Shown here: piece by piece, positions 10,402-48,389 of the stretch
Numbering within the stretch: the first letter of the stretch is position 1
Layout of the letters: each line of letters begins with the position of its first letter
Made by a program: the position numbers and the translations under genes
NCBI GenBank assembly: GCA_000999715.1
Contig: LCGL01000004.1
Coordinates: 44,289 to 108,288, forward strand
Direction of reading: 5' to 3'
DNA: 64,000 nucleotides
Source of the DNA: Candidatus Falkowbacteria bacterium GW2011_GWF2_43_32
GTDB taxonomy: Bacteria; Patescibacteriota; Patescibacteriia; Patescibacteriales; UBA12465
Notes under the pieces: generated by a model
The model's database searches: none
Seen by the model: only the letters and a program-made list of their open reading frames with translations
What the model was told of the DNA's origin: nothing

Positions 10402-10848
10402 TTGTTTATGTCGCAAAAGATTATCACATTTGAAATCGTCACGCCGGAAAGAGTTGTTTTCCGAGAGGAAATCAGACAGATAACCGTGCCGACGACCAGC
10501 GGCGAAGTCACTATTTTGCCGGAGCATATTCCTTTGGTTTCCATCTTGAAGCCGGGCGTGTTGGAAATCAAAAAGTCCGACGATACCTGGGAAATTATTT
10601 CAGTATCCGGCGGATTTTTGGAGGTGCTGCGGGACAAAATTGTTATTTTAGCGGATACGGCGGAAAGAGCGGTGGAATTGGATGAACAGAGAATTGAGGA
10701 GGCTAGAGCCAGAGCCGAGGAAGCCAAGAAGAATGCGATTAATGTTGATCAAATGGAATTTGCCCGTATTGCCGCTCAATTGGAGAAAGAATTGGCGCGG
10801 ACGCGCGCTTTGAATCGTTGGCGGAAGATTAAAGGTTTTTCCAAGTAA
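10402..10848 (+). CDS. atpC: F0F1 ATP synthase subunit epsilon
   Basis: N-terminal beta-sandwich (IVTPERVVF..) plus C-terminal helical hairpin. Last gene of the operon. Confidence 0.85.
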   Translation: MFMSQKIITFEIVTPERVVFREEIRQITVPTTSGEVTILPEHIPLVSILKPGVLEIKKSDDTWEIISVSGGFLEVLRDKIVILADTAERAVELDEQRIEEARARAEEAKKNAINVDQMEFARIAAQLEKELARTRALNRWRKIKGFSK

Positions 10849-10878
10849 GAGGTATTCAAGTGATATTTTTAAAATAAA

Positions 10879-10906
10879 AGCCTCGGCCTATCGGTCGGGG
10901 TTTTTG
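10879..10906 (+). terminator. Probable intrinsic terminator of the atp operon
   Basis: Short GC stem (cggcc/ggtcg with one G-U pair) followed by GGGTTTTT, directly after the atpC stop. Confidence 0.4.
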
Positions 10907-11183
10907 GTATTTGGAATCGGATTTTGATTTACGGGATTTACCAAGGATTTTTGATATTTTTAAGGCGGAAACTCGTCATTATTCATACTTTGTTGTTTAT
11001 TGGTCCTGTTGCATAAGCGAATAAAAGGAGATAAAATAAGATTATCCGAGTATTGACGCTTGATTCGAGAATTACGCGATATATTCGTATAATAGTCAAT
11101 AATTTGTATATATTGCGTATTTATGACGTATAAAAATGAGTTAGCTGAAATTTTGTCTGCCTAATCAATAATCCAATATTAAT

Positions 11184-11630
11184 ATGCCTGAAAAAGAACG
11201 ATTTAAACCGTACGCCGCCGCCTATCTCGTCTTAATAAAAGATGGGCAAGTTTTGCTCATGAAAAGAGCCAACACTGGCTATCAGGATGGAAATTACGGG
11301 TTAGTATCTGGCCATTTTGATGGCGGAGAAACAGCAAAACAATGTATAATTCGTGAATCAAGGGAGGAGGCTGGAATTACTGTTTTTCCGGAAGATCTTG
11401 AAGTTGTTCATGTTGTGCATCGTTTTAGACCGGCTAGGGAATATTTTGATATTTATCTTCGTGCAGAAAAATGGTCTGGTGAAATAAAAAACATGGAACA
11501 AGATAAATGTGATGAGTTTGGGTGGTTTAAAATTGACGATCTTCCGGAAAATGCGATTCCCGAATTAAAACTTGCCCTTGAAAATATTAGAAACAACGTG
11601 CATTATGGAGAGCTTGGTTGGGCGGCTTAG
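11184..11630 (+). CDS. Nudix hydrolase (island cassette 1)
   Basis: Nudix box GHFDGGETAKQCIIRESREEAGI (Gx5Ex7REUxEExGU). Confidence 0.85.
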   Translation: MPEKERFKPYAAAYLVLIKDGQVLLMKRANTGYQDGNYGLVSGHFDGGETAKQCIIRESREEAGITVFPEDLEVVHVVHRFRPAREYFDIYLRAEKWSGEIKNMEQDKCDEFGWFKIDDLPENAIPELKLALENIRNNVHYGELGWAA

Positions 11631-11664
11631 TGATATTAAAAATGTCGGCAGACAAAGCATCAGA

Positions 11665-11760
11665 TAACACGGTATATACAAAATTTTCTTTCGCTTCGCT
11701 TCAAAAAACTTCGTATGATACCGATACGTTGTACGCCATACACTTCGGCGCGCGGGTTAA
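11665..11760. repeat. Island intergenic repeat: imperfect palindrome with arms CAGATAACACGGTATATAC ... GTATGATACCGATACGTTGTAC around a CTTTCGCTTCGCTTC-AAAAAACTTC box
   Basis: The reverse complement of the right arm matches the left arm at most positions. The central box recurs at 13540-13560 and 16860-16875. Confidence 0.55.
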
Positions 11761-11774
11761 ATAAAGTTCACGAT

Positions 11775-12236
11775 ATGAACATTGAGGATTTGAAAAATAC
11801 AGTCAAAGATATAGTCGCCAAGGCTGATATTTTGAAAAGTAAAATTGTAAAAGAGCCAGTTCCAGTAAATTACGCATGTATTTTCTGCCAAAGTAAGGAA
11901 GAATATACGTCGTTTCTTGAAACAACAAAGCAAATCGGAACCGTAGTCCAAGAAACAAAAGCTGGCCCTGTATTTCAAATTGCTTCTTTGCCCACGATTG
12001 CAGGGAATTTGCAGCTACTTAAGATACGCAAGCCTGATCCAACACGGCCTGAACGTGGAGACGCTGATTTTACTCTCTTAAACTATGAAGAATTTAAAAA
12101 AGAGCATCTTTCACAACCAGGGTTTAGTCTCATTCAAAAGGAGCAACTCGAAATGATAGAGTATATGGAGCCAGATAGTTCTATTAGAGTGTATTTTTCA
12201 AATCCTCCATTAGATAAACAGTTGGGGATTATTTAA
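11775..12236 (+). CDS. Hypothetical protein (island cassette 2)
   Basis: ORF with no recognisable motif. Start placed at MNIEDL. The track ORF begins at 11715 but that extension runs through the intergenic repeat. Confidence 0.5.
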   Translation: MNIEDLKNTVKDIVAKADILKSKIVKEPVPVNYACIFCQSKEEYTSFLETTKQIGTVVQETKAGPVFQIASLPTIAGNLQLLKIRKPDPTRPERGDADFTLLNYEEFKKEHLSQPGFSLIQKEQLEMIEYMEPDSSIRVYFSNPPLDKQLGII

Positions 12237-12243
12237 GAGGCGC

Positions 12244-12290
12244 CTCGTGTACAGCGCACAACACCGGATATCCGATTCGTGAGCTAAGTA
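12244..12290. repeat. Island intergenic repeat copy (CACAACACCGGATATCCG box)
   Basis: Shares the AACAC-N3-ATATCCG core with copies at 13349, 16435 and 16915. Confidence 0.5.
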
Positions 12291-12302
12291 AAATTATTTT
12301 TT

Positions 12303-12761
12303 ATGCCCGACCACCAAAATAAACTGATCGCTGAAACTTCTTCCGAATTGTCTGCCGTGCTCAAGTTGTTACGCAGACATAGAGCTGATATTAAAAATAG
12401 CTATAAAGAAAAAAGGGGTGAGCGTCAGATATTAAGCCGTGAAGAGAGACGAGTAATACTAAATAAAACAGCTCGGCGCTGTCATATCTGTGGCGGTAAA
12501 ATTGAAGGAAACAAATTTGACGCTGATCATGTTATGGCGCATAGCAGCGGCGGCAAACATAACATTGATAATTATTTACCAGCTCATTCATTGTGCAATA
12601 ACTATCGATGGGATTATCTTGCAGAAGAGTTTCAGCTTATATTAAAAATAGGGGTTTGGTGCAGAACATTGATTGAGCATAATAAAACAACATTAGACCA
12701 AAAGATTGCCAAGAGTTTCATCGAATATGAAAAGAGTAGGTTAAAAAGAAGAAAAAAATAA
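12303..12761 (+). CDS. HNH endonuclease domain protein (island cassette 3)
   Basis: CHICGGK...DADHVMAHSSGG...NIDNY..HSLCNNYR: CxxC, DH, N and H of the HNH/His-Me finger. Confidence 0.8.
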   Translation: MPDHQNKLIAETSSELSAVLKLLRRHRADIKNSYKEKRGERQILSREERRVILNKTARRCHICGGKIEGNKFDADHVMAHSSGGKHNIDNYLPAHSLCNNYRWDYLAEEFQLILKIGVWCRTLIEHNKTTLDQKIAKSFIEYEKSRLKRRKK

Positions 12762-12779
12762 TTTTACTTATCTCGCTCA

Positions 12780-12895
12780 TTCAAATTGCTTGTCCGCTTA
12801 GGCGTTGGGTAGCGCTCCATTCCACTACGCGCTACAATTATACCGCCACGCGAACTGCGCAACTTCGAATATCCGCAAACGTTAGATGAAATAAT
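12780..12895. repeat. Island intergenic repeat copy (GTAGCGC..GCGCTAC inner palindrome; GAATATCCGCAAACGTTAGAT right arm)
   Basis: Contains the TTATCTCGCT and CACTACGCGCTAC boxes shared with 16870-16900. The right arm ends in GTTAGAT, a perfect GTTRRRY match. Confidence 0.5.
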
Positions 12896-12907
12896 AATCC
12901 ACCTAAT

Positions 12908-13327
12908 ATGAATAAAGAAACCAGTTTTAAAAAAATCTTGTATTCTAAATTGAATGCGAGACAACAAGAAAATTATAATTACCAAAAAGCGTCGGCAATT
13001 CTAGCTGACTATGGATTCAACACGCTTCGACTTTCGGATGACTGGCAGGGGGCTGATTTCATCGCAATACATATTAATGGTAAAGATTTTTTAAAAGTAC
13101 AACTTAAGGGTCGCCTCACATTTGAAAAAAAGTATATTGGTAGAGATATTTGGATTTGCTTTTCTTATCAAGACAACTGGTTTCTTTATCCGCACGATAT
13201 GCTACTTCAAATATTTGGAGATAAAATGAATTTCATCAATACGAAATCATGGACTGAAAAGGGTGGGTATAGCTGGAATCATTTAAATAAAAATCAAATT
13301 TTAGTTATCTCCAAATATAAGATTTAA
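12908..13327 (+). CDS. Hypothetical protein, possible PD-(D/E)xK nuclease fold (island cassette 4)
   Basis: GADFIAIHINGKDFLKVQLKG resembles a D...(E/Q)xK catalytic core. The assignment is weak. Confidence 0.45.
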   Translation: MNKETSFKKILYSKLNARQQENYNYQKASAILADYGFNTLRLSDDWQGADFIAIHINGKDFLKVQLKGRLTFEKKYIGRDIWICFSYQDNWFLYPHDMLLQIFGDKMNFINTKSWTEKGGYSWNHLNKNQILVISKYKI

Positions 13328-13344
13328 AGCCAGTGGATTATTAC

Positions 13345-13448
13345 ATCAGCTAACACGACATATCCGCAAGGGCGAAAGCCACATTTTGCCACTCTATTAA
13401 AAAAAATAAGGATGTGGCGAAACGTCGGATATGCCGTAACGTTATTTG
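13345..13448. repeat. Island intergenic repeat: nested imperfect palindrome (attC-like architecture)
   Basis: Outer arms CTAACACGACATATCCG and CGGATATGCCGTAACGTTAT are reverse complements with a few mismatches. Inner arms AGCCACAT and ATGTGGCG flank an A-rich centre. Confidence 0.6.
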
Positions 13449-13525
13449 AAATATTCCTTTTTTTTGGCTATCGTTCAATTGTTGTAAAAAATTTTAAAAT
13501 TTCTTTTTTATTAATTAAAGAGGGG

Positions 13526-13580
13526 TATATAGTGTTTTCTCCGCTACGCTACAAAAACTTCTTTTATCCCTGATGTTCTG
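13526..13580. repeat. Island intergenic repeat copy in reverse orientation (GGGTATATAGTGTT + CTCCGCTACGCTAC-AAAAACTTC + TTTTATCCCTGATGT)
   Basis: Reverse complement of the ACATCAGG...AACAC..TATATAC box, with the same central box as 11692-11725. Confidence 0.5.
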
Positions 13581-13585
13581 CAAAA

Positions 13586-14065
13586 TTGAAACTTTTACAA
13601 CTTTTCTTTTTTAATATGAAACAGACTTATTCTATCGGAGCATTTGCGATTATCCTTGATGACCAAGATCGTGTTTTGCTTTGTCATAGAAATGATTACG
13701 ATCTTTGGAATCTCCCTGGCGGAGGAGTGGAATTTAATGAGGCGCCGTGGGAATGCGTCGTTCGTGAAGTTAAGGAGGAAATCGGCCTTGATGTTGAAGT
13801 TGAGCGTCTTGCTGGCGTGTACAGTAAGCGCAACCAAGATGAGTTAGTTTTTTCTTTTGTTTGTAGGGTTGTTGGTGGAAAAATGACGCTCACAAATGAA
13901 GCCGACCAAATTGAGTATTTCCCAATCGAGGAGATTCCAAAGAATACGTCGCCTAAGCAAAGTGAGAGAATAAAGGATGTTCTTGCCGATAAAGGCAAAA
14001 CGCTAGCTATGAGAGTTCAAGAAGGTCCGTCATCAATAAGTTTGATAAAGGAGGGAAAGTTGTAA
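13586..14065 (+). CDS. Nudix hydrolase (island cassette 5)
   Basis: Nudix box GGGVEFNEAPWECVVREVKEEIGL. Alternative start at 13616. Confidence 0.8.
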   Translation: MKLLQLFFFNMKQTYSIGAFAIILDDQDRVLLCHRNDYDLWNLPGGGVEFNEAPWECVVREVKEEIGLDVEVERLAGVYSKRNQDELVFSFVCRVVGGKMTLTNEADQIEYFPIEEIPKNTSPKQSERIKDVLADKGKTLAMRVQEGPSSISLIKEGKL

Positions 14066-14130
14066 AAAATTTCAGTATCGCATACTCGGATATGTTATGT
14101 GAAATAAAGTTTTATTTTTAACTATAGTCT

Positions 14131-14544
14131 ATGGCTTATTTCAATAAAATCGGTTTGCTGTATCTTAATGACGATCAGTCAAAGTTTTTAGTGTGTGAAA
14201 AAGATAATTTTACTTCTGATTTCATTATGCCCGGCGGGCAAGTGGATGATGGCGAGAATAATGAAGAATGCCTCGTACGTGAAATTAAAGAAGAGCTCGA
14301 TGTAGATATGGATAAGACAAGCCTCATATTTATCAAGGAGTATGTAGATGTGGCGGCCGGTGACCCGACAAAAGACGTTTCTATAAAGTTGTACGAAGGT
14401 AAAATTATTGGCGAGCCTAAACCGTCTGCTGAAATAATCAAGTTTCACTGGGTTGGTAAGGACGACTTGTTTCATCCGCGACTTTCCCCGATTGTCAAGA
14501 ATAGAATTTTGCCTGATCTTATCGCAAAAAAAATACTAAAATAA
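14131..14544 (+). CDS. Nudix hydrolase (island cassette 6)
   Basis: Nudix box PGGQVDDGENNEECLVREIKEELDV. Confidence 0.8.
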   Translation: MAYFNKIGLLYLNDDQSKFLVCEKDNFTSDFIMPGGQVDDGENNEECLVREIKEELDVDMDKTSLIFIKEYVDVAAGDPTKDVSIKLYEGKIIGEPKPSAEIIKFHWVGKDDLFHPRLSPIVKNRILPDLIAKKILK

Positions 14545-14552
14545 AATTTTAC

Positions 14553-14578
14553 ATCGCAGAACACGGTATGGCTAATTA
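14553..14578. repeat. Island intergenic repeat, short copy (ACATCGCAGAACACGGTATGGCTAAT)
   Basis: Matches the ACATCAG-N-TAACACGGYATAT box. Lies 9 nt upstream of the next start codon. Confidence 0.5.
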
Positions 14579-14586
14579 CGACCTTT

Positions 14587-15207
14587 ATGCAAATACCAGC
14601 CAATATTTCGCTAAAACAAGAAGGGCAATATTGTATTCATTGTTTTTCGCAAAAAGTCGAAAAAACTGATCGGGATGGCTTAACATATTATCATTGTCAT
14701 TCGTGCGGCCAGATTGCAGAAAGAAGCTTGGTTATCGATAATAGTATTGTTTGGTGGATAGATAAAAAAACCAATGAGTATTGGCATGAGAGTGTGGGTA
14801 TTTTTGTTTTTAATTTTGAAAATAAAGCTCTTTTTTTCGAAAGGACCATTTATCCTTTCGCCTTTACTATTCCGGCAGGGCATCTTGACGTCGGAGAAAT
14901 TGCAGACGTCGCCGTAAAGCGAGAGTTGAAAGAAGAAACAAAAATTGAATCTGATAATGTTAAACTTTTTTCGACAGAAGATGTGAGCGGAGACAAATGT
15001 CGTCGCGGAGCCGATCATCATAAATGGCATCTTTATGTAGCTCAAATTGAAAATATCGGTAACATCAAAATAAACGACGAAGGAATAAAGCCCGTTTGGC
15101 TCACTTTTGATGAGGCGTTGGGAAAAAAATTGGTGTATCCGGTCCGATATTTTATTGAAAAATACGGAGAAAAACTGTTGAAATCGGCGCAAATAGTAGA
15201 AATATAA
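14587..15207 (+). CDS. Nudix hydrolase with N-terminal zinc ribbon (island cassette 7)
   Basis: CIHC...CHSCG zinc ribbon followed by Nudix box PAGHLDVGEIADVAVKRELKEETKI. This resembles the NudC-type domain order. Confidence 0.8.
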   Translation: MQIPANISLKQEGQYCIHCFSQKVEKTDRDGLTYYHCHSCGQIAERSLVIDNSIVWWIDKKTNEYWHESVGIFVFNFENKALFFERTIYPFAFTIPAGHLDVGEIADVAVKRELKEETKIESDNVKLFSTEDVSGDKCRRGADHHKWHLYVAQIENIGNIKINDEGIKPVWLTFDEALGKKLVYPVRYFIEKYGEKLLKSAQIVEI

Positions 15208-15288
15208 GAGGAAAATTGTTTGTACCAAAAAATTAAAAAAGGAGTTTTAGGCTCGAGCATTGACGCTCTTATATTTTCTGACCTTAAT

Positions 15289-15343
15289 TTGTTCCGATTT
15301 CTTTAATATGGTATACTGTAAATAATCAGCTAAACCATATTAA
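15289..15343 (+). promoter_or_regulatory. Candidate promoter (TTGTTC-17-TGgTATACT, extended -10) overlapped by a perfect 10-bp inverted repeat TTAATATGGT/ACCATATTAA, upstream of the fic gene
   Basis: -35 at 15289-15294. TG-extended -10 at 15309-15317. Inverted-repeat arms at 15303-15312 and 15334-15343 with a 21-nt spacer. Confidence 0.45.
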
Positions 15344-15352
15344 ATATTTTCT

Positions 15353-16318
15353 ATGACATATCTACCATCTATCATAAAAAATCGTCTGGAAGAAAAATTG
15401 TCTAAACTTAACAAACTTCGTCCCCTGCCCAAATCAGCGGTACAAAAACTTCGTGAAAAATTCCAGATAGAGATGACCTTCAATTCAAACGCCATAGAGG
15501 GCAACTCTTTAACTTTAAAAGAGACCTTTTTGGTTATTAATGAAGGCATAACTGTAAAGGGGAAACCCTTGAAAGACCACCTGGAAGCCAAAGATCATCA
15601 CGCCGCTTTGGAATATTTATACGAGTTAATAGATAAAGACAAAAGACACACTATTTCGGAAATGCTTATACGAAATTTGCATAAAATTATTATACAGGAA
15701 ACCGATAAGGATTGGGCCGGCCGATACAGAAATGCCAATGTAACTATAGGGGGAGCAAAACACACGCCGCCAGATGCGTTGCAAGCGCCACAAAAGATGC
15801 GAGATTTAATCAGTTGGTTGAATTTACAAAAAGGCAAGACTAATATCGTTGAATTGGCCGCCTTATTACATCACAAATTAGTGCATATCCATCCCTTTTT
15901 TGACGGCAACGGCAGAACGGCACGACTCACAATGAATTTACTGCTTATGCAGGCGGGCTATCCGTTGGTTATTATTATGAAAAATGACCGCAAGAAATAT
16001 TATGATGTATTGGATAAAGCGGATAGCGGTAAACTCGAACCTCTAATAAAATTTATTGCTCAATCTATAGAGCGCTCACTTGATATTTATCTAAAAACTT
16101 TGACTCCCTCAACCACCAAGCAAGAAAAATTTGTATCGCTTGCTGAAATATCCAAGACTATTAATTGTTCTGCCAAATACTTAAATCTGCTCGCCAGACA
16201 AGGAAAACTGGAAGCATACAAAGAAGGCAGGGATTGGTTGACATCGAAAGAAGCTGTTGAACGATATTTTAAAAACCGAACAAGACAAAGAAAAAGTTCA
16301 AAAAAGAAAGTTATATAG
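15353..16318 (+). CDS. Fic/Doc-family protein (AMP-transferase-type motif) with C-terminal excisionase/MerR-like HTH (island cassette 8)
   Basis: Canonical Fic motif HIHPFFDGNGRTARL. C-terminal LAEISKTINCSAKYLNLLARQGKLEAYKEGRDWLTSKEAVERYF matches the HTH_17/excisionase-type DNA-binding pattern. Confidence 0.85.
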   Translation: MTYLPSIIKNRLEEKLSKLNKLRPLPKSAVQKLREKFQIEMTFNSNAIEGNSLTLKETFLVINEGITVKGKPLKDHLEAKDHHAALEYLYELIDKDKRHTISEMLIRNLHKIIIQETDKDWAGRYRNANVTIGGAKHTPPDALQAPQKMRDLISWLNLQKGKTNIVELAALLHHKLVHIHPFFDGNGRTARLTMNLLLMQAGYPLVIIMKNDRKKYYDVLDKADSGKLEPLIKFIAQSIERSLDIYLKTLTPSTTKQEKFVSLAEISKTINCSAKYLNLLARQGKLEAYKEGRDWLTSKEAVERYFKNRTRQRKSSKKKVI

Positions 16319-16429
16319 GAGTTTTGGTCCTGGGGCATTTTTCCCCAGCTCATCTGCTCCTACGCCCAGACAAAAATAAAATTTGTTCATTAAGAAAAGT
16401 ATTTGACTATCGTCGGAAAAAAGAAAAGC

Positions 16430-16512
16430 ATACATCATATAACACGGCATATCCGGTTACGGCGTTTATACAAAAGCCGTAATCAGGCATGCCGAAACGT
16501 TATGCGCCGCCA
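16430..16512. repeat. Island intergenic repeat: nested imperfect palindrome (attC-like architecture)
   Basis: ATATAACACGGCATATCCGG | TTACGGCG-TTTATACAAAA-GCCGTAA | TCAGGCATGCCGAAACGTTATGC. Outer and inner arms are each reverse-complementary pairs. The right end GTTATGC lies 60 nt before the next ATG. Confidence 0.6.
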
Positions 16513-16568
16513 AAAGGATGCACTTGGCTTGCGAATATTTATAAACAAGAATAATAAACAACAACATT

Positions 16569-16835
16569 ATGGAAAATAATCATTTCAAAGATGCGGTTAA
16601 ATCACACAAACTGCTTGCGCAAGAAAGAACCATTCTTGCCAATGAGCGTAATACTCTCGCGTATATAAGAACGGGGTTTTCTTCATTTGTTCTCGGTATT
16701 GCAGTCATTAAATTATTTGAGAACGACGGTTTTTTGCTATATGCTGGATGGATAGCTGTCGTGATGGGAATATTATTTATTATTCTGGGGCTAGTTTATT
16801 ATCCAATACGGAAAAAGAAGATTAAGTCATATTAG
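16569..16835 (+). CDS. DUF202/YidH-family small membrane protein (island cassette 9)
   Basis: TILANERNTLAYIRTG motif typical of DUF202, followed by two TM helices. Confidence 0.7.
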   Translation: MENNHFKDAVKSHKLLAQERTILANERNTLAYIRTGFSSFVLGIAVIKLFENDGFLLYAGWIAVVMGILFIILGLVYYPIRKKKIKSY

Positions 16836-16845
16836 ATTGTGTCCT

Positions 16846-16945
16846 CCTGAAACTCACTCCGCTTCGCTCCGACTACGCCACGCTTTTATCTCGCTGCGTT
16901 ACGCTTCAGTCGAGTCGTATAACAAGGCATATCCCGGACAAGAAC
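16846..16945. repeat. Island intergenic repeat copy (CACTCCGCTTCGCTCCGACTACGCCACGC + TTTTATCTCGCTGCG + GTATAACAAGGCATATCCCGG)
   Basis: Combines all three recurring boxes of the family. Confidence 0.55.
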
Positions 16946-17008
16946 TACCAAACAAGGGGTCGAGTAAGAATTGAAACATTCACTAGCAGTTAATTAATTA
17001 AAATTATT

Positions 17009-17332
17009 ATGAAATTAGGAATAATTATCAGTCAAATAAATCCGGAAACAAATTGGAACGCTTTGCGTTTAGCGAATTTTGCTCTCAAACAAGGCGACGA
17101 AGTTAAAATTTTTCTCATTGGCGAAGGCGTAGAGTATGAAACGGGCAGTTCGGAAAAATTTAACCTCCAAGAACAAATAGCGGAATTTTTAAAATCTGAA
17201 AATGCTAAAATTTTGGCGTGCGGCACTTGTTTAAAATCGAGAAATCAAGAAGCGACCGATAGCTGCCCGCTGAGCACCATGAAAGATCTATATGCGCTCG
17301 TACAAGAAAGCGATAAAATTTTAACTTTTTAA
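17009..17332 (+). CDS. DsrE/DsrF/TusD-like protein
   Basis: 107 aa, fold and length typical of the DsrE/DsrF-like family (conserved Cys in ACGTCLKS). Confidence 0.55.
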   Translation: MKLGIIISQINPETNWNALRLANFALKQGDEVKIFLIGEGVEYETGSSEKFNLQEQIAEFLKSENAKILACGTCLKSRNQEATDSCPLSTMKDLYALVQESDKILTF

Positions 17333-17344
17333 TGAAATAATTTT

Positions 17345-17563
17345 ATGATGTATTATAATTTTGCGCCTTTTGGCTGGATTTTCATGATTTTTTTCTGGGT
17401 TTTGGCGATTGCCGGAATCATTGTTTTGATAAAATGGCTAGTCGGCCAAAATAAGACTGAAAGCGGAAAAAATAATATCGCCTTAGATATTCTCAAAGAG
17501 AGATATGCAAAAGGCGATATTAATAAAAAAGAGTTTGGAGAAAAAAAGAGAGATTTGGAATAA
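17345..17563 (+). CDS. SHOCT-domain small membrane protein
   Basis: One TM helix then [25 protein letters not shown], the SHOCT (short C-terminal) domain pattern. Confidence 0.6.
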
Positions 17564-17616
17564 GATATTTTGAGCTTCGGGTATTTTGTTTAGAAAATCA
17601 AGTCAAATGTGAGATA

Positions 17617-18453
17617 TTAAAATCTCAGCCAGATCATCACGATTAAGGCCAAAGCCATCCGATACCAGCCGAAAAAAGTGAAATTATGTTTTTGGATGAA
17701 ATTCAAGAAGAAGCGGATGCTGATAATGGCCGTAATGAAGGACATAACGAAGCCGATGGCCCAGACTGTCAAATCTTGGCCGACTAACAAGCCGAGCGTC
17801 GCTCGGCTTTTATATAAATCCAGGCCGGTGGCGGCTATCATGGTGGGGATGGCTAACAAAAAAGAAAATTCTACAATATTTTTACGGCCGATGCCGAGGG
17901 CCAATCCGCCGATGATGGTGGCGGCGGACCGGGAAACGCCCGGAATAATCGCCAAAGCTTGAAAAAAGCCGATGCCGGCGGCTTGTTTATAAGAGACATT
18001 CATTTCCAGTCCCCGTCCCTTGTCTTCCTTTTCTTTTTCGTTATTTTCTTCCTCGGCCGATAATATTTCGGCTGTTTGTTTTCGGGAATAATATTTTTCA
18101 AAAATAATCAGAACTAAGCCGCCGACGAAGAGCGAGCCGGCGATAACGTAATTATTGTCCAGCAGATAATTTTTGACGATTTTATAAAATATCAAACCGA
18201 TTAACGCGGTCGGCAAAAAGGCGGCGCCGATTTTGCCGAACAGTTCCCAAGAGTGCCAAATTTTTTTCCAATACAAAACCACCACCGCCAGAATCGCTCC
18301 GAGCTGGATGGAGATCGTGAAGGTTTTGAAAAACTCGGAAGAAGGGAGTCTGAGCCATTCTCCGGCCAAAATCAAATGAGCCGTGGAAGAAATCGGCAGA
18401 AATTCGCTTAAACCCTCTATCAGGCCCAAAATCAAACCATGAAATACAGTCAT
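17617..18453 (-). CDS. uppP: Undecaprenyl-diphosphate phosphatase
   Basis: N-terminus GLILGLIEGLSEFLPISSTAHLIL and PGVSRSAATIIGG motif of the BacA/UppP family. Eight TM segments. Confidence 0.85.
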   Translation of the reverse strand: MTVFHGLILGLIEGLSEFLPISSTAHLILAGEWLRLPSSEFFKTFTISIQLGAILAVVVLYWKKIWHSWELFGKIGAAFLPTALIGLIFYKIVKNYLLDNNYVIAGSLFVGGLVLIIFEKYYSRKQTAEILSAEEENNEKEKEDKGRGLEMNVSYKQAAGIGFFQALAIIPGVSRSAATIIGGLALGIGRKNIVEFSFLLAIPTMIAATGLDLYKSRATLGLLVGQDLTVWAIGFVMSFITAIISIRFFLNFIQKHNFTFFGWYRMALALIVMIWLRF

Positions 18454-48177: not shown

Positions 48178-48362
48178 TTCCGCCTCACTCGCGGACCAGT
48201 CCGCTCGTTCGTTGTCGCGGTCAGCGTCCGAAGCTCCCCCGGAGCTTCGTCCGACGCTCGCTACGGTGCCACTCTGCTGAGCGGCCCCTAAGCTCGCTTC
48301 TGACCTGTTTGCTTCCCCTAGTTGCGAATTAATAATAAAAAATATCCAGTATTCACTGGATA
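48178..48362 (+). other. 185-bp GC-rich structured element bracketed by the tRNA-Glu 3'-end direct repeats; candidate integration scar or small ncRNA
   Basis: Markedly GC-rich (about 60%+ by eye) in AT-rich context. Contains long imperfect hairpin AGCGTCCGAAGCTCC-ccc-GGAGCTTCGtccGACGCT. 5' CTAGGGGAA can pair with 3' TTCCCCTAG. Preceded and followed by + strand terminators. Confidence 0.4.
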
Positions 48363-48370
48363 TTTTTTAT
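48342..48370 (+). terminator. Intrinsic terminator
   Basis: ATATCCAGT-attc-ACTGGATAT perfect 9-bp stem followed by TTTTTTAT. Confidence 0.55.
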
Positions 48371-48389
48371 TAGTAGTCCCTAGGGGAAT
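48363..48389. repeat. Direct repeat copy B (tRNA-Glu 3' 16 nt + 11-nt trailer)
   Basis: See copy A at 48151-48177. Confidence 0.8.

Follow-up and report, generated by a model that had tools for sequence, protein, structure and literature searches.

The 64,000-nt stretch of Candidatus Falkowbacteria bacterium GW2011_GWF2_43_32 analysed here (contig LCGL01000004.1, positions 44,289 to 108,288 of the forward strand; hereafter the window) contains at 10849-17616 an island that is very probably an integrase-less, partly decayed array of integron-like gene cassettes. There is strong reason to regard the palindromes between its genes as attC-like recombination sites, and the array as an integron-like cassette platform headed by an attI-like site. 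The island (~10.9-17.6 kb) had a GC content of 0.37-0.40, compared with 0.44-0.47 in its flanks, and was bordered by atpC (10402-10848), at the end of the ATP synthase operon, and by the convergent uppP/bacA (17617-18453, minus strand). Its cargo consisted of eleven small genes, every one on the plus strand; Pfam assigned four to NUDIX and one each to HNH, Fic/HTH, DUF202, DsrE-like and SHOCT families, leaving two open reading frames (ORFs) without an assigned function. In total, the window held an attI-like site (11079-11152) and about nine cassettes, and a cassette array of this kind accounts for the presence of a low-GC island between atpC and uppP.

Structure of the sites in the window

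The left box of sites D and G (coordinates of all sites are given in Table 1) was CATCAkmTAAC-ACGrCATATCCG, and the right box was its imperfect reverse complement, followed by wAAC-GTTAT. In site D the boxes were CATCAGCTAAC-ACGACATATCCG on the left and CGGATATGCCG-TAAC-GTTATTTGAAAT on the right, with an independent inner stem-loop in between. In site G they were CATCATATAAC-ACGGCATATCCG and GGCATGCCG-AAAC-GTTATGCG, around an inner hairpin, TTACGGCG..GCCGTAA. The original prediction, made from the letters alone, had described nested imperfect palindromes in both spacers with independent inner arms around a centre, and both features were found as quoted. Relative to shuffled sequences, the single-stranded DNA folds had z-scores of -2.6 (top strand) and -3.7 (bottom strand) for site D, and of -3.1 and -2.2, respectively, for site G. 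Scores with R1, a covariance model of the site family described below, were 61.2, 53.1 and 33.7 bits for sites D, G and A on the plus strand, but only 14-18 bits on the reverse strand. The 12-mer box occurred 13 times in the window, against 5.6 expected, and its close copies were confined to 11.6-17.0 kb.

Right-core GTT triplets were located at 12881, 13441 and 16499, and the next ORF started 27-175 nt after each, a placement consistent with the relation to ORF starts on which the proposal of attC-like sites depended. The triplets themselves had been recognised correctly, although the positions noted for them (12885, 13439 and 16502) were 2-4 nt off. Site D belonged to a sub-type common to sites in five other loci (L028, L040, L085, L089 and L112). 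Type-III sites, 140 nt long, in L003, L019 and L042 were homologues of site C.

A conserved family of sites in other genomes

A 20-nt degenerate left box, CATCAKMTAACACGRYATAT, was fitted to three copies in the window and searched in a species-representative genome collection. It matched at least 119 genome loci, against ~17 expected by our own estimate, which assumes uniform base composition. Most among the matches listed were in records titled Patescibacteria or its candidate phyla, which were metagenome-assembled genomes (MAGs). A few matches had no site and looked like chance (L033, L041, L060 and L062 among others). MAGs titled uncultured Gammaproteobacteria or Bdellovibrionales shared their sites, cassettes and recombinase with the Patescibacteria MAGs (L018, L020, L027, L039, L040, L045, L052, L010, L064 and others); mislabelling, binning error or real transfer could explain these occurrences.

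Model R1 was built from 79 full, non-identical sites of 87-151 nt taken from the genome-derived loci. In the alignment the ends of the sites were nearly invariant and their centres modular. From left to right, the layout comprised a left core (...CATCAKMTAAC), 1 nt, an 11-bp stem (L stem), one or two variable central hairpins, the partner of the L stem, a 4-nt AWAC bulge and the right core GTTAnnTGAAAT, all on the same strand as the cassette genes; sites D, G and A in the window had this layout. TAAC and GTTA were paired and 96-99% conserved in the 79 sites, and in the window they were present at sites A, D and G, in agreement with the earlier view that the spacers resembled recombination sites with ...AAC as the left and GTT... 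as the right core.

Pairing was pervasive in the alignment, with 87.5% of all cells paired, compared with 22-41% when the partners were slid. The L stem was 95.7% paired and unbulged, five of its pairs had changed on both sides, and both inner hairpins covaried. Such covarying stems indicate that pairing, and not sequence, has been maintained. The suggestion that mismatches between the arms supply extrahelical bases was not borne out, since the L stem had no bulge and the single A/C mismatch of site D was private to that copy. Adjacent left and right cores paired at TAAC/GTTA only, as would be expected if the two cores come from different cassettes. At positions 9-10, the extended R stem had a conserved 2x2 mismatch.

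The sites were also strongly polar. Among 218 sites, 104 instances of the motif GCGNAGC were counted on the bottom strand, compared with a single one on the top strand. In DNA, mini-hairpins with such a GNA loop are very stable, and the restriction of the motif to one strand fits a folded bottom-strand substrate. Together with the polarity of the R1 scores, it is an indirect pointer to the bottom strand as the substrate. R1 identified 226 + 41 = 267 sites in the genome-derived loci, none of which had sites on both strands. The arrays were co-oriented, with up to 9 copies per locus, up to 7 per 8 kb and a spacing of 0.5-1.5 kb.

Cassette ends and recombination junctions

In integrons, the sequence following the G/TT point of the right core moves together with the downstream cassette, with whose own left core it pairs. 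For the window, the 25 nt from each GTT were compared with the reverse complement of the 25 nt ending at each AAC. Cognate starts and ends matched at 19, 15, 22, 19 and 20 of 25 positions, whereas non-cognate combinations, including the two ends of one spacer, matched at ~10. For instance, the start of cassette 1 (11140-11164) and the end of that cassette (11644-11668) were complementary at 19 of 25 positions. The matching stretches were specific to each cassette (e.g., TAATAATCCAC in cassette 3, and TTTGTCTGCC), and this complementarity between start and end argues against the palindrome being a self-contained repeat. A longer cassette, 13441-16443, was considered and rejected, as its 19/25 match consisted mostly of conserved core and a T-rich run, and a better-supported cassette was nested inside.

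The same signature was examined on a large scale over the 20 nt beyond the conserved cores, with a threshold of at least 14/20. Complementarity at this level was found in 43% of 125 consecutive pairs, compared with 0% of the 213 pairs of flanks from one site and 2% of the 1052 pairs formed at random (Mann-Whitney p = 4e-20). From GTT-N (the fourth base) onwards, cassette starts followed their own end over the adjacent site (informative cases 13:4, 29:3 and 25:3), and these position-wise splits place the exchange within or just after GTT, with a junction resolved to within ~3 nt. Loci L164 and L165 were identical up to ...AAAAACGAGTTA (GTTA) and divergent afterwards, and one cassette start sequence followed three attI sites (L144, L152 and L187) as well as an attC-like site in L032. 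Judging from the sequences, we read both cases as natural recombination junctions.

Recombinase and attI-like site

A tyrosine recombinase of ~270 aa was found in 12 site-sampled loci and matched IntI1 better than XerD. It was divergent at the head of the array in 11/11 of the site-sampled loci with mapped sites. A second sample comprised 80 metagenome loci chosen by similarity of the recombinase protein, in which 257 kb upstream and 379 kb downstream of the recombinases were searched; all of the R1 sites (93/93) lay on the strand opposite to the recombinase gene, upstream of its start codon, and a site was present in 34/39 loci for which at least 1 kb upstream was available. The protein retained the catalytic residues R-K-HxxR-H-Y and an IntI-like C-terminal motif, (I/V)(K/R)SPL. 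Two gaps in its alignment with IntI1, of 31 and 11 aa, corresponded to the IntI-specific domain, which was missing. The best solved relative was IntI4 (222.5 bits, in two stretches skipping residues ~186-240), while matches to the integron integrase profile TIGR02249 (211-221 bits) were split in two and below its cut-off of 265, and those to NF040815 (212-225 bits) were around the model cut-off of 220.

An attI-like region was conserved beside these recombinases. Its GTT was 83-162 nt (mostly 100-135) from the recombinase start codon, and it contained a direct repeat, TTCGCATAAyATACAA, the second copy of which ran into ...AAACGA and then directly into GTTAnnnGAAAT. An nhmmer profile of 36 recombinase-proximal regions from the metagenome loci gave one significant match in the window, at the head of the array, and the next match (E 0.11) was the same region on the reverse strand. 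The GTT of this match (G at 11140) was the start of cassette 1. It was also observed that 20/80 of the recombinase-bearing metagenome contigs ended at or slightly beyond the attI-like GTT, at a distance of 60-260 nt upstream from the start codon (L134, L137, L140, L143, L165, L168 and 14 others), which suggests assembly breaks where alternative first cassettes coexist in a population.

Cassettes and other features of the island

The units of the island are listed in Table 1. The split site of cassette 2 (sites B and C) enclosed the HNH unit, which was edged by the inverted repeats GAGCTAAGTAAAATTATTTTTT and AAAAAAATAATTTTACTTATCTC and whose ends matched at 22/25; the match of the start of cassette 2 to its own end was 15/25. 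The left half-site and the right part flanking the HNH unit aligned to one type-III site. This unit may be a mobile element that inserted into a type-III site; alternatively, it may be a cassette whose GTG/CGC cores are degenerate. Among the matches listed for the 119 loci, none was a homologue of the HNH ORF. At the distal end of the island, there was no site between the SHOCT gene (ending at 17563) and the convergent uppP.

Table 1. Sites, cassettes and other units of the island, with positions in the window.
Feature	Position	Strand	R1 score	Description
attI-like site	11079-11152	+		Array head; nhmmer E 1.1e-8; direct repeat ATTCGTATAATAGTCAA, then GACGTATAAAAATGA directly followed by GTTAGCTGAAAT
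Site A	11658-11739	+	33.7 bits, E 2e-6	Full but short, without inner hairpin 1
Site B	12252-12280	+		Left half, CAGCGCACAAC-A-CCGGATATCCG; fuzzy box match
Site C	12775-12892	+	12.6 bits, E ~1	Type-III site, right part: inner hairpins, L' and R' (GTTAGAT)
Site D	13344-13452	+	61.2 bits, E 9e-14	Full type-II site, 108-nt type
Site E	14066-14105	+		Degenerate mini-site
Site F		+	10.7 bits	Left half CATCGCAGAAC-ACGGTATGG remaining, at the end of cassette 5
Site G	16433-16510	+	53.1 bits, E 1e-11	Full, inner hairpin 1 only
Site H	16913-16936	+		Left half only, GTCGTATAAC-AAGGCATATCCC; box match
Cassette 1	11141-11728	+		NUDIX gene 11184-11630 (Pfam) and site A
Cassette 2	11729-12881	+		153-aa ORF 11775-12236, function unassigned, then split/degenerate sites B and C
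HNH unit	12281-12774	+		Endonuclease ORF 12303-12761 (Pfam HNH); ~22-nt inverted repeats at the edges
Cassette 3	12882-13441	+		139-aa ORF 12908-13327, function unassigned, and site D; start/end match 19/25, including TAATAATCCAC
Cassette 4	13442-14094	+		Conserved ~150-nt leader, NUDIX gene (NUDIX2) 13616-14065 (Pfam), mini-site E
Cassette 5	14095-14575	+		NUDIX gene 14131-14544 and site F; start versus own end 20/25
Zn-ribbon NUDIX and Fic/HTH genes	14587-16432	+		Genes 14587-15207 and 15353-16318 (Pfam)
DUF202 cassette	16500-16936	+		Gene 16569-16835 (Pfam) and left half of site H
Distal island end	17009-17563	+		DsrE-like gene 17009-17332 and SHOCT gene 17345-17563 (Pfam)

Several cassettes recurred elsewhere with different neighbours (NUDIX2, DUF202, Fic, NUDIX4 and NUDIX1; 73-93% amino acid identity). 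The NUDIX2 protein was 90% identical in L007 and 81% identical in L018, where it was the first cassette beside the recombinase. The DUF202 protein was 93% identical in L007, directly after the NUDIX2 homologue. Homologues of the Zn-ribbon NUDIX and Fic proteins, with 79-89% identity, were in other arrays (L103, L104, L071 and L054; Fic 89% in L071).

The leader of cassette 4 (13442-13600) ran from GAAATATTCCTTTT to TTAATTAAAGAGGGGTAaTAaGGTGTTTTCTCCGCTAcGCTAC(g/a)AAAAC, with a final hairpin resembling inner hairpin 2 of the sites. A leader of ~150 nt of this kind recurred right after GTT in L164, L177, L182, L139, L150, L167 and L156, which include several unrelated arrays, and a role as promoter, leader or small RNA is conceivable. 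The motif CGAGyATTGACGCT was present at 11047-11060, upstream of the first NUDIX gene, and at 15254-15267, upstream of the Fic gene, and may be a cassette-borne promoter mark. A consensus promoter scan was uninformative, with 25 promoter-like sites in the island against 21.5 expected.

GC skew of the plus strand was positive across the whole window, so that the plus strand is probably the leading strand, which would place the bottom strands of the sites on the leading-strand template. In sedentary chromosomal integrons, an attC bottom strand on the leading-strand template is the reported arrangement. Outside the island, an AT-rich palindrome at 48326-48380 gave weak R1 scores on both strands (12-14 bits, E ~0.4-1.4); the conserved boxes were absent, and it is most likely noise.

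Proposed mechanism and evidence against it

In the system proposed here, each unit would comprise one or two genes and end in a folded attC-like site, and the compact ~270-aa tyrosine recombinase, related to both IntI and archaeal XerA, would exchange strands at or within the right-core GTT. As in integrons, cassettes would leave the array in circular form and enter at attI. In this scheme the recombinase is the probable catalyst, the folded bottom strand its likely substrate, and circular cassette intermediates presumably exist. The array in the window would be either served in trans or decaying.

No tyrosine recombinase was found in the window by Pfam scans of 30 ORFs, nor was any found by phmmer with IntI1 and XerD against all 216 window ORFs of at least 80 aa. 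When 12 array-associated recombinases were used as tblastn queries against the window, the lowest E was 0.04, at a position far from the island. The lack of a recombinase gene or remnant in the 64 kb makes activity at this locus conjectural. Five further points weigh against the proposed system. In the window, sites E, F, H and B/C were half-sites or degenerate, and there was no recognisable site between the genes at 14587-15207 and 15353-16318. Elsewhere, 57% of consecutive site pairs were below 14/20 complementarity, which may reflect missed sites or decay. The covariation and the GCGNAGC counts include many copies related by descent, which are not independent events. Finally, the recombinase family has been interpreted as an Xer substitute in candidate phyla (PMC8138268).

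Beyond the window, we lean towards the view that Patescibacteria (the candidate phyla radiation, CPR) own a widespread integron-like system, composed of a compact IntI/XerA-like integrase that lacks the IntI-specific domain, a conserved attI and a sequence-conserved family of folded sites with a different spacer. Such a system may have arisen independently of integrons, as another solution to the same problem, or may be ancestral or sister to them; it would move cassettes between distant lineages with reduced genomes. No description of it was found in the open-access literature on integrons or attC sites in Patescibacteria, CPR, Parcubacteria or Saccharibacteria, or on integron-like Xer systems.

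Alternative explanations

The same recombinase and sites might take part in an Xer/dif-like reaction on double-stranded cores, in which the palindromes would be incidental or regulatory. Archaeal XerA was about as close to the recombinase as IntI4 (211 versus 222 bits), and some members of the family reached the NCBIfam XerA_Arch cut-off. The recombinase also lacks the domain that in IntI reportedly contacts the extrahelical bases (MacDonald et al. 2006). An Xer relationship has been assigned to the 'Cand' tyrosine recombinases (PMC8138268). Besides its fixed association with arrays, the enzyme may have a second role in chromosome-dimer resolution, which takes place at a single dif site of ~28-31 bp per replicon, near the terminus. 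We nevertheless consider an Xer/dif-like reaction at the cassette sites unlikely. The stems covary, strand polarity is strong, with GCGNAGC confined to one strand, and cassette ends are complementary over at least 20 nt, which would be superfluous for a double-stranded core.

It is quite unlikely that the sites are canonical attC sites and the island an ordinary cluster of attC sites lacking integron-integrases (CALIN, a category of IntegronFinder), served by a classical IntI that has the IntI-specific domain and is encoded elsewhere in the genome. This explanation is compatible with the AAC/GTT cores, the location at cassette 3' ends, the lengths of 79-150 nt and the layout of the array. In class-1 attCs from plasmids the R box is 7 bp long, the spacer is 5/6 nt and the L box contains a bulged base, whereas here the spacer was 1/4 nt and the L stem unbulged. 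A surrogate attC model, R2, which was built from 13 class-1 integron attCs and is not the IntegronFinder model, scored 34-68 bits on held-out class-1 attCs and matched none of the window sites. In 98 kb of arrays the best R2 score, again from this surrogate and not from IntegronFinder's model, was 15.4 bits (E ~0.19-0.3), although a few noise-level matches coincided with R1 sites on the correct strand. Moreover, all recombinases beside these arrays were ~270 aa and without the insertion. The attC identity first proposed for the spacers is retained in part: they are cassette-end sites with a function that would be attC-like, but their 1/4 spacer and unbulged L stem are not those of canonical attCs, and the surrogate R2 did not detect them.

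Repetitive extragenic palindromic (REP) or miniature inverted-repeat transposable element (MITE)-like repeats, or transcription terminators, that spread alone and have no relation to cassette mobility are a very unlikely source of the palindromes. The elements are indeed intergenic, palindromic and repeated, and some would form RNA hairpins after stop codons. However, flanks of the same site reached 14/20 complementarity in 0% of 213 pairs, while flanks across a gene did so in 43%; all copies in a locus had one orientation and a fixed position relative to the recombinase and the attI-like site, and the T-tract signature of terminators was not found at the sites. The same-site flank test also ruled out reading each palindrome as a MITE or a terminal inverted repeat. 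Structured non-coding RNA genes, such as a regulatory 3' untranslated element, are the least probable explanation: the covariation supports a conserved fold that RNA could adopt too, but Rfam gave no family match in the window (E up to 1) or in 10 loci (gathering score), the GNA-type mini-hairpin motif is on the strand antisense to the genes, and the complementarity of cassette starts and ends and the divergence exactly at GTT would be left unexplained.

Implications and comparison with known systems

In practice, the definition of an integron rests on the extra domain of its integrase and on the extrahelical bases of its attC sites, whereas the full layout is found here without that domain and with another site geometry. 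If the system is active, folded-site cassette capture would be independent of the IntI insertion, and the origin of integrons from Xer-like recombinases would become directly testable. Patescibacteria, with their tiny genomes and few described mobile elements, would gain a dedicated route of gene exchange, of which the cargo here is NUDIX, Fic, HNH and small membrane proteins. Such elements would have escaped surveys based on IntegronFinder criteria, which call for the IntI domain and a canonical attC model.

The recombinases resemble archaeal XerA and the 'Cand' recombinases (PMC8138268) in size, in domain layout and in having no insertion, but differ from them in their fixed divergent position beside cassette arrays and an attI-like site. 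The survey of Smyshlyaev et al. (2021) placed the Xer-related enzymes of candidate phyla in the 'Cand' group, with no link to cassettes (PMC8138268). From XerD they differ by the (I/V)(K/R)SPL motif, which is absent there and common to the recombinases described here, IntI1 and IntI4. The pdif modules of Acinetobacter plasmids are, like these cassettes, small gene modules bounded by sites of an Xer-type recombinase. A pdif site is a 28-bp duplex, and pdif sites alternate in orientation; the sites described here are folded palindromes of 79-150 nt, in one orientation and at one end of each unit only.

The array in the window resembles a CALIN in having at least two sites (of the type described here), with three full and several partial sites and no recombinase in 64 kb. 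It differs in keeping an attI-like site at its head, and its sites are not canonical attCs. With regard to cargo, a class-1 integron in the Raoultella plasmid pWLK-NDM (L129) had a NUDIX cassette and a group II intron adjoining an attC, so that NUDIX genes, of which the window array has four paralogues, are also cargo of canonical integrons.

The likeness to integrons includes the divergent tyrosine recombinase heading the array, the attI-like site, which has direct repeats and a crossover at GTT, and co-oriented, promoter-poor cassettes mostly of one gene. Each cassette has at its 3' end an imperfect palindrome of 79-150 nt with an AAC left core, a GTT right core and a variable centre, and its start pairs with its own left core; GCGNAGC is on the bottom strand, as also in class-1 attCs. 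Both a paper on archaeal integrons and the survey of tyrosine recombinases consider the IntI-specific domain necessary for integron function (PMC9668308, PMC8138268), and an additional domain near patch III defines the integron integrase according to a passage of PMC9668308 that refers to Messier and Roy (2001). The recombinases here are ~270 aa and lack the counterpart of IntI4 residues ~186-240. The sites, in turn, depart from canonical attCs in an R-L spacer with a 1-nt left side and a 4-nt (AWAC) right side instead of 5/6, and in an L stem without an extrahelical base. They depart further from those of integrons in an R stem of at least 20 bp with a conserved 2x2 mismatch, and in box sequences that are nearly invariant across many lineages.

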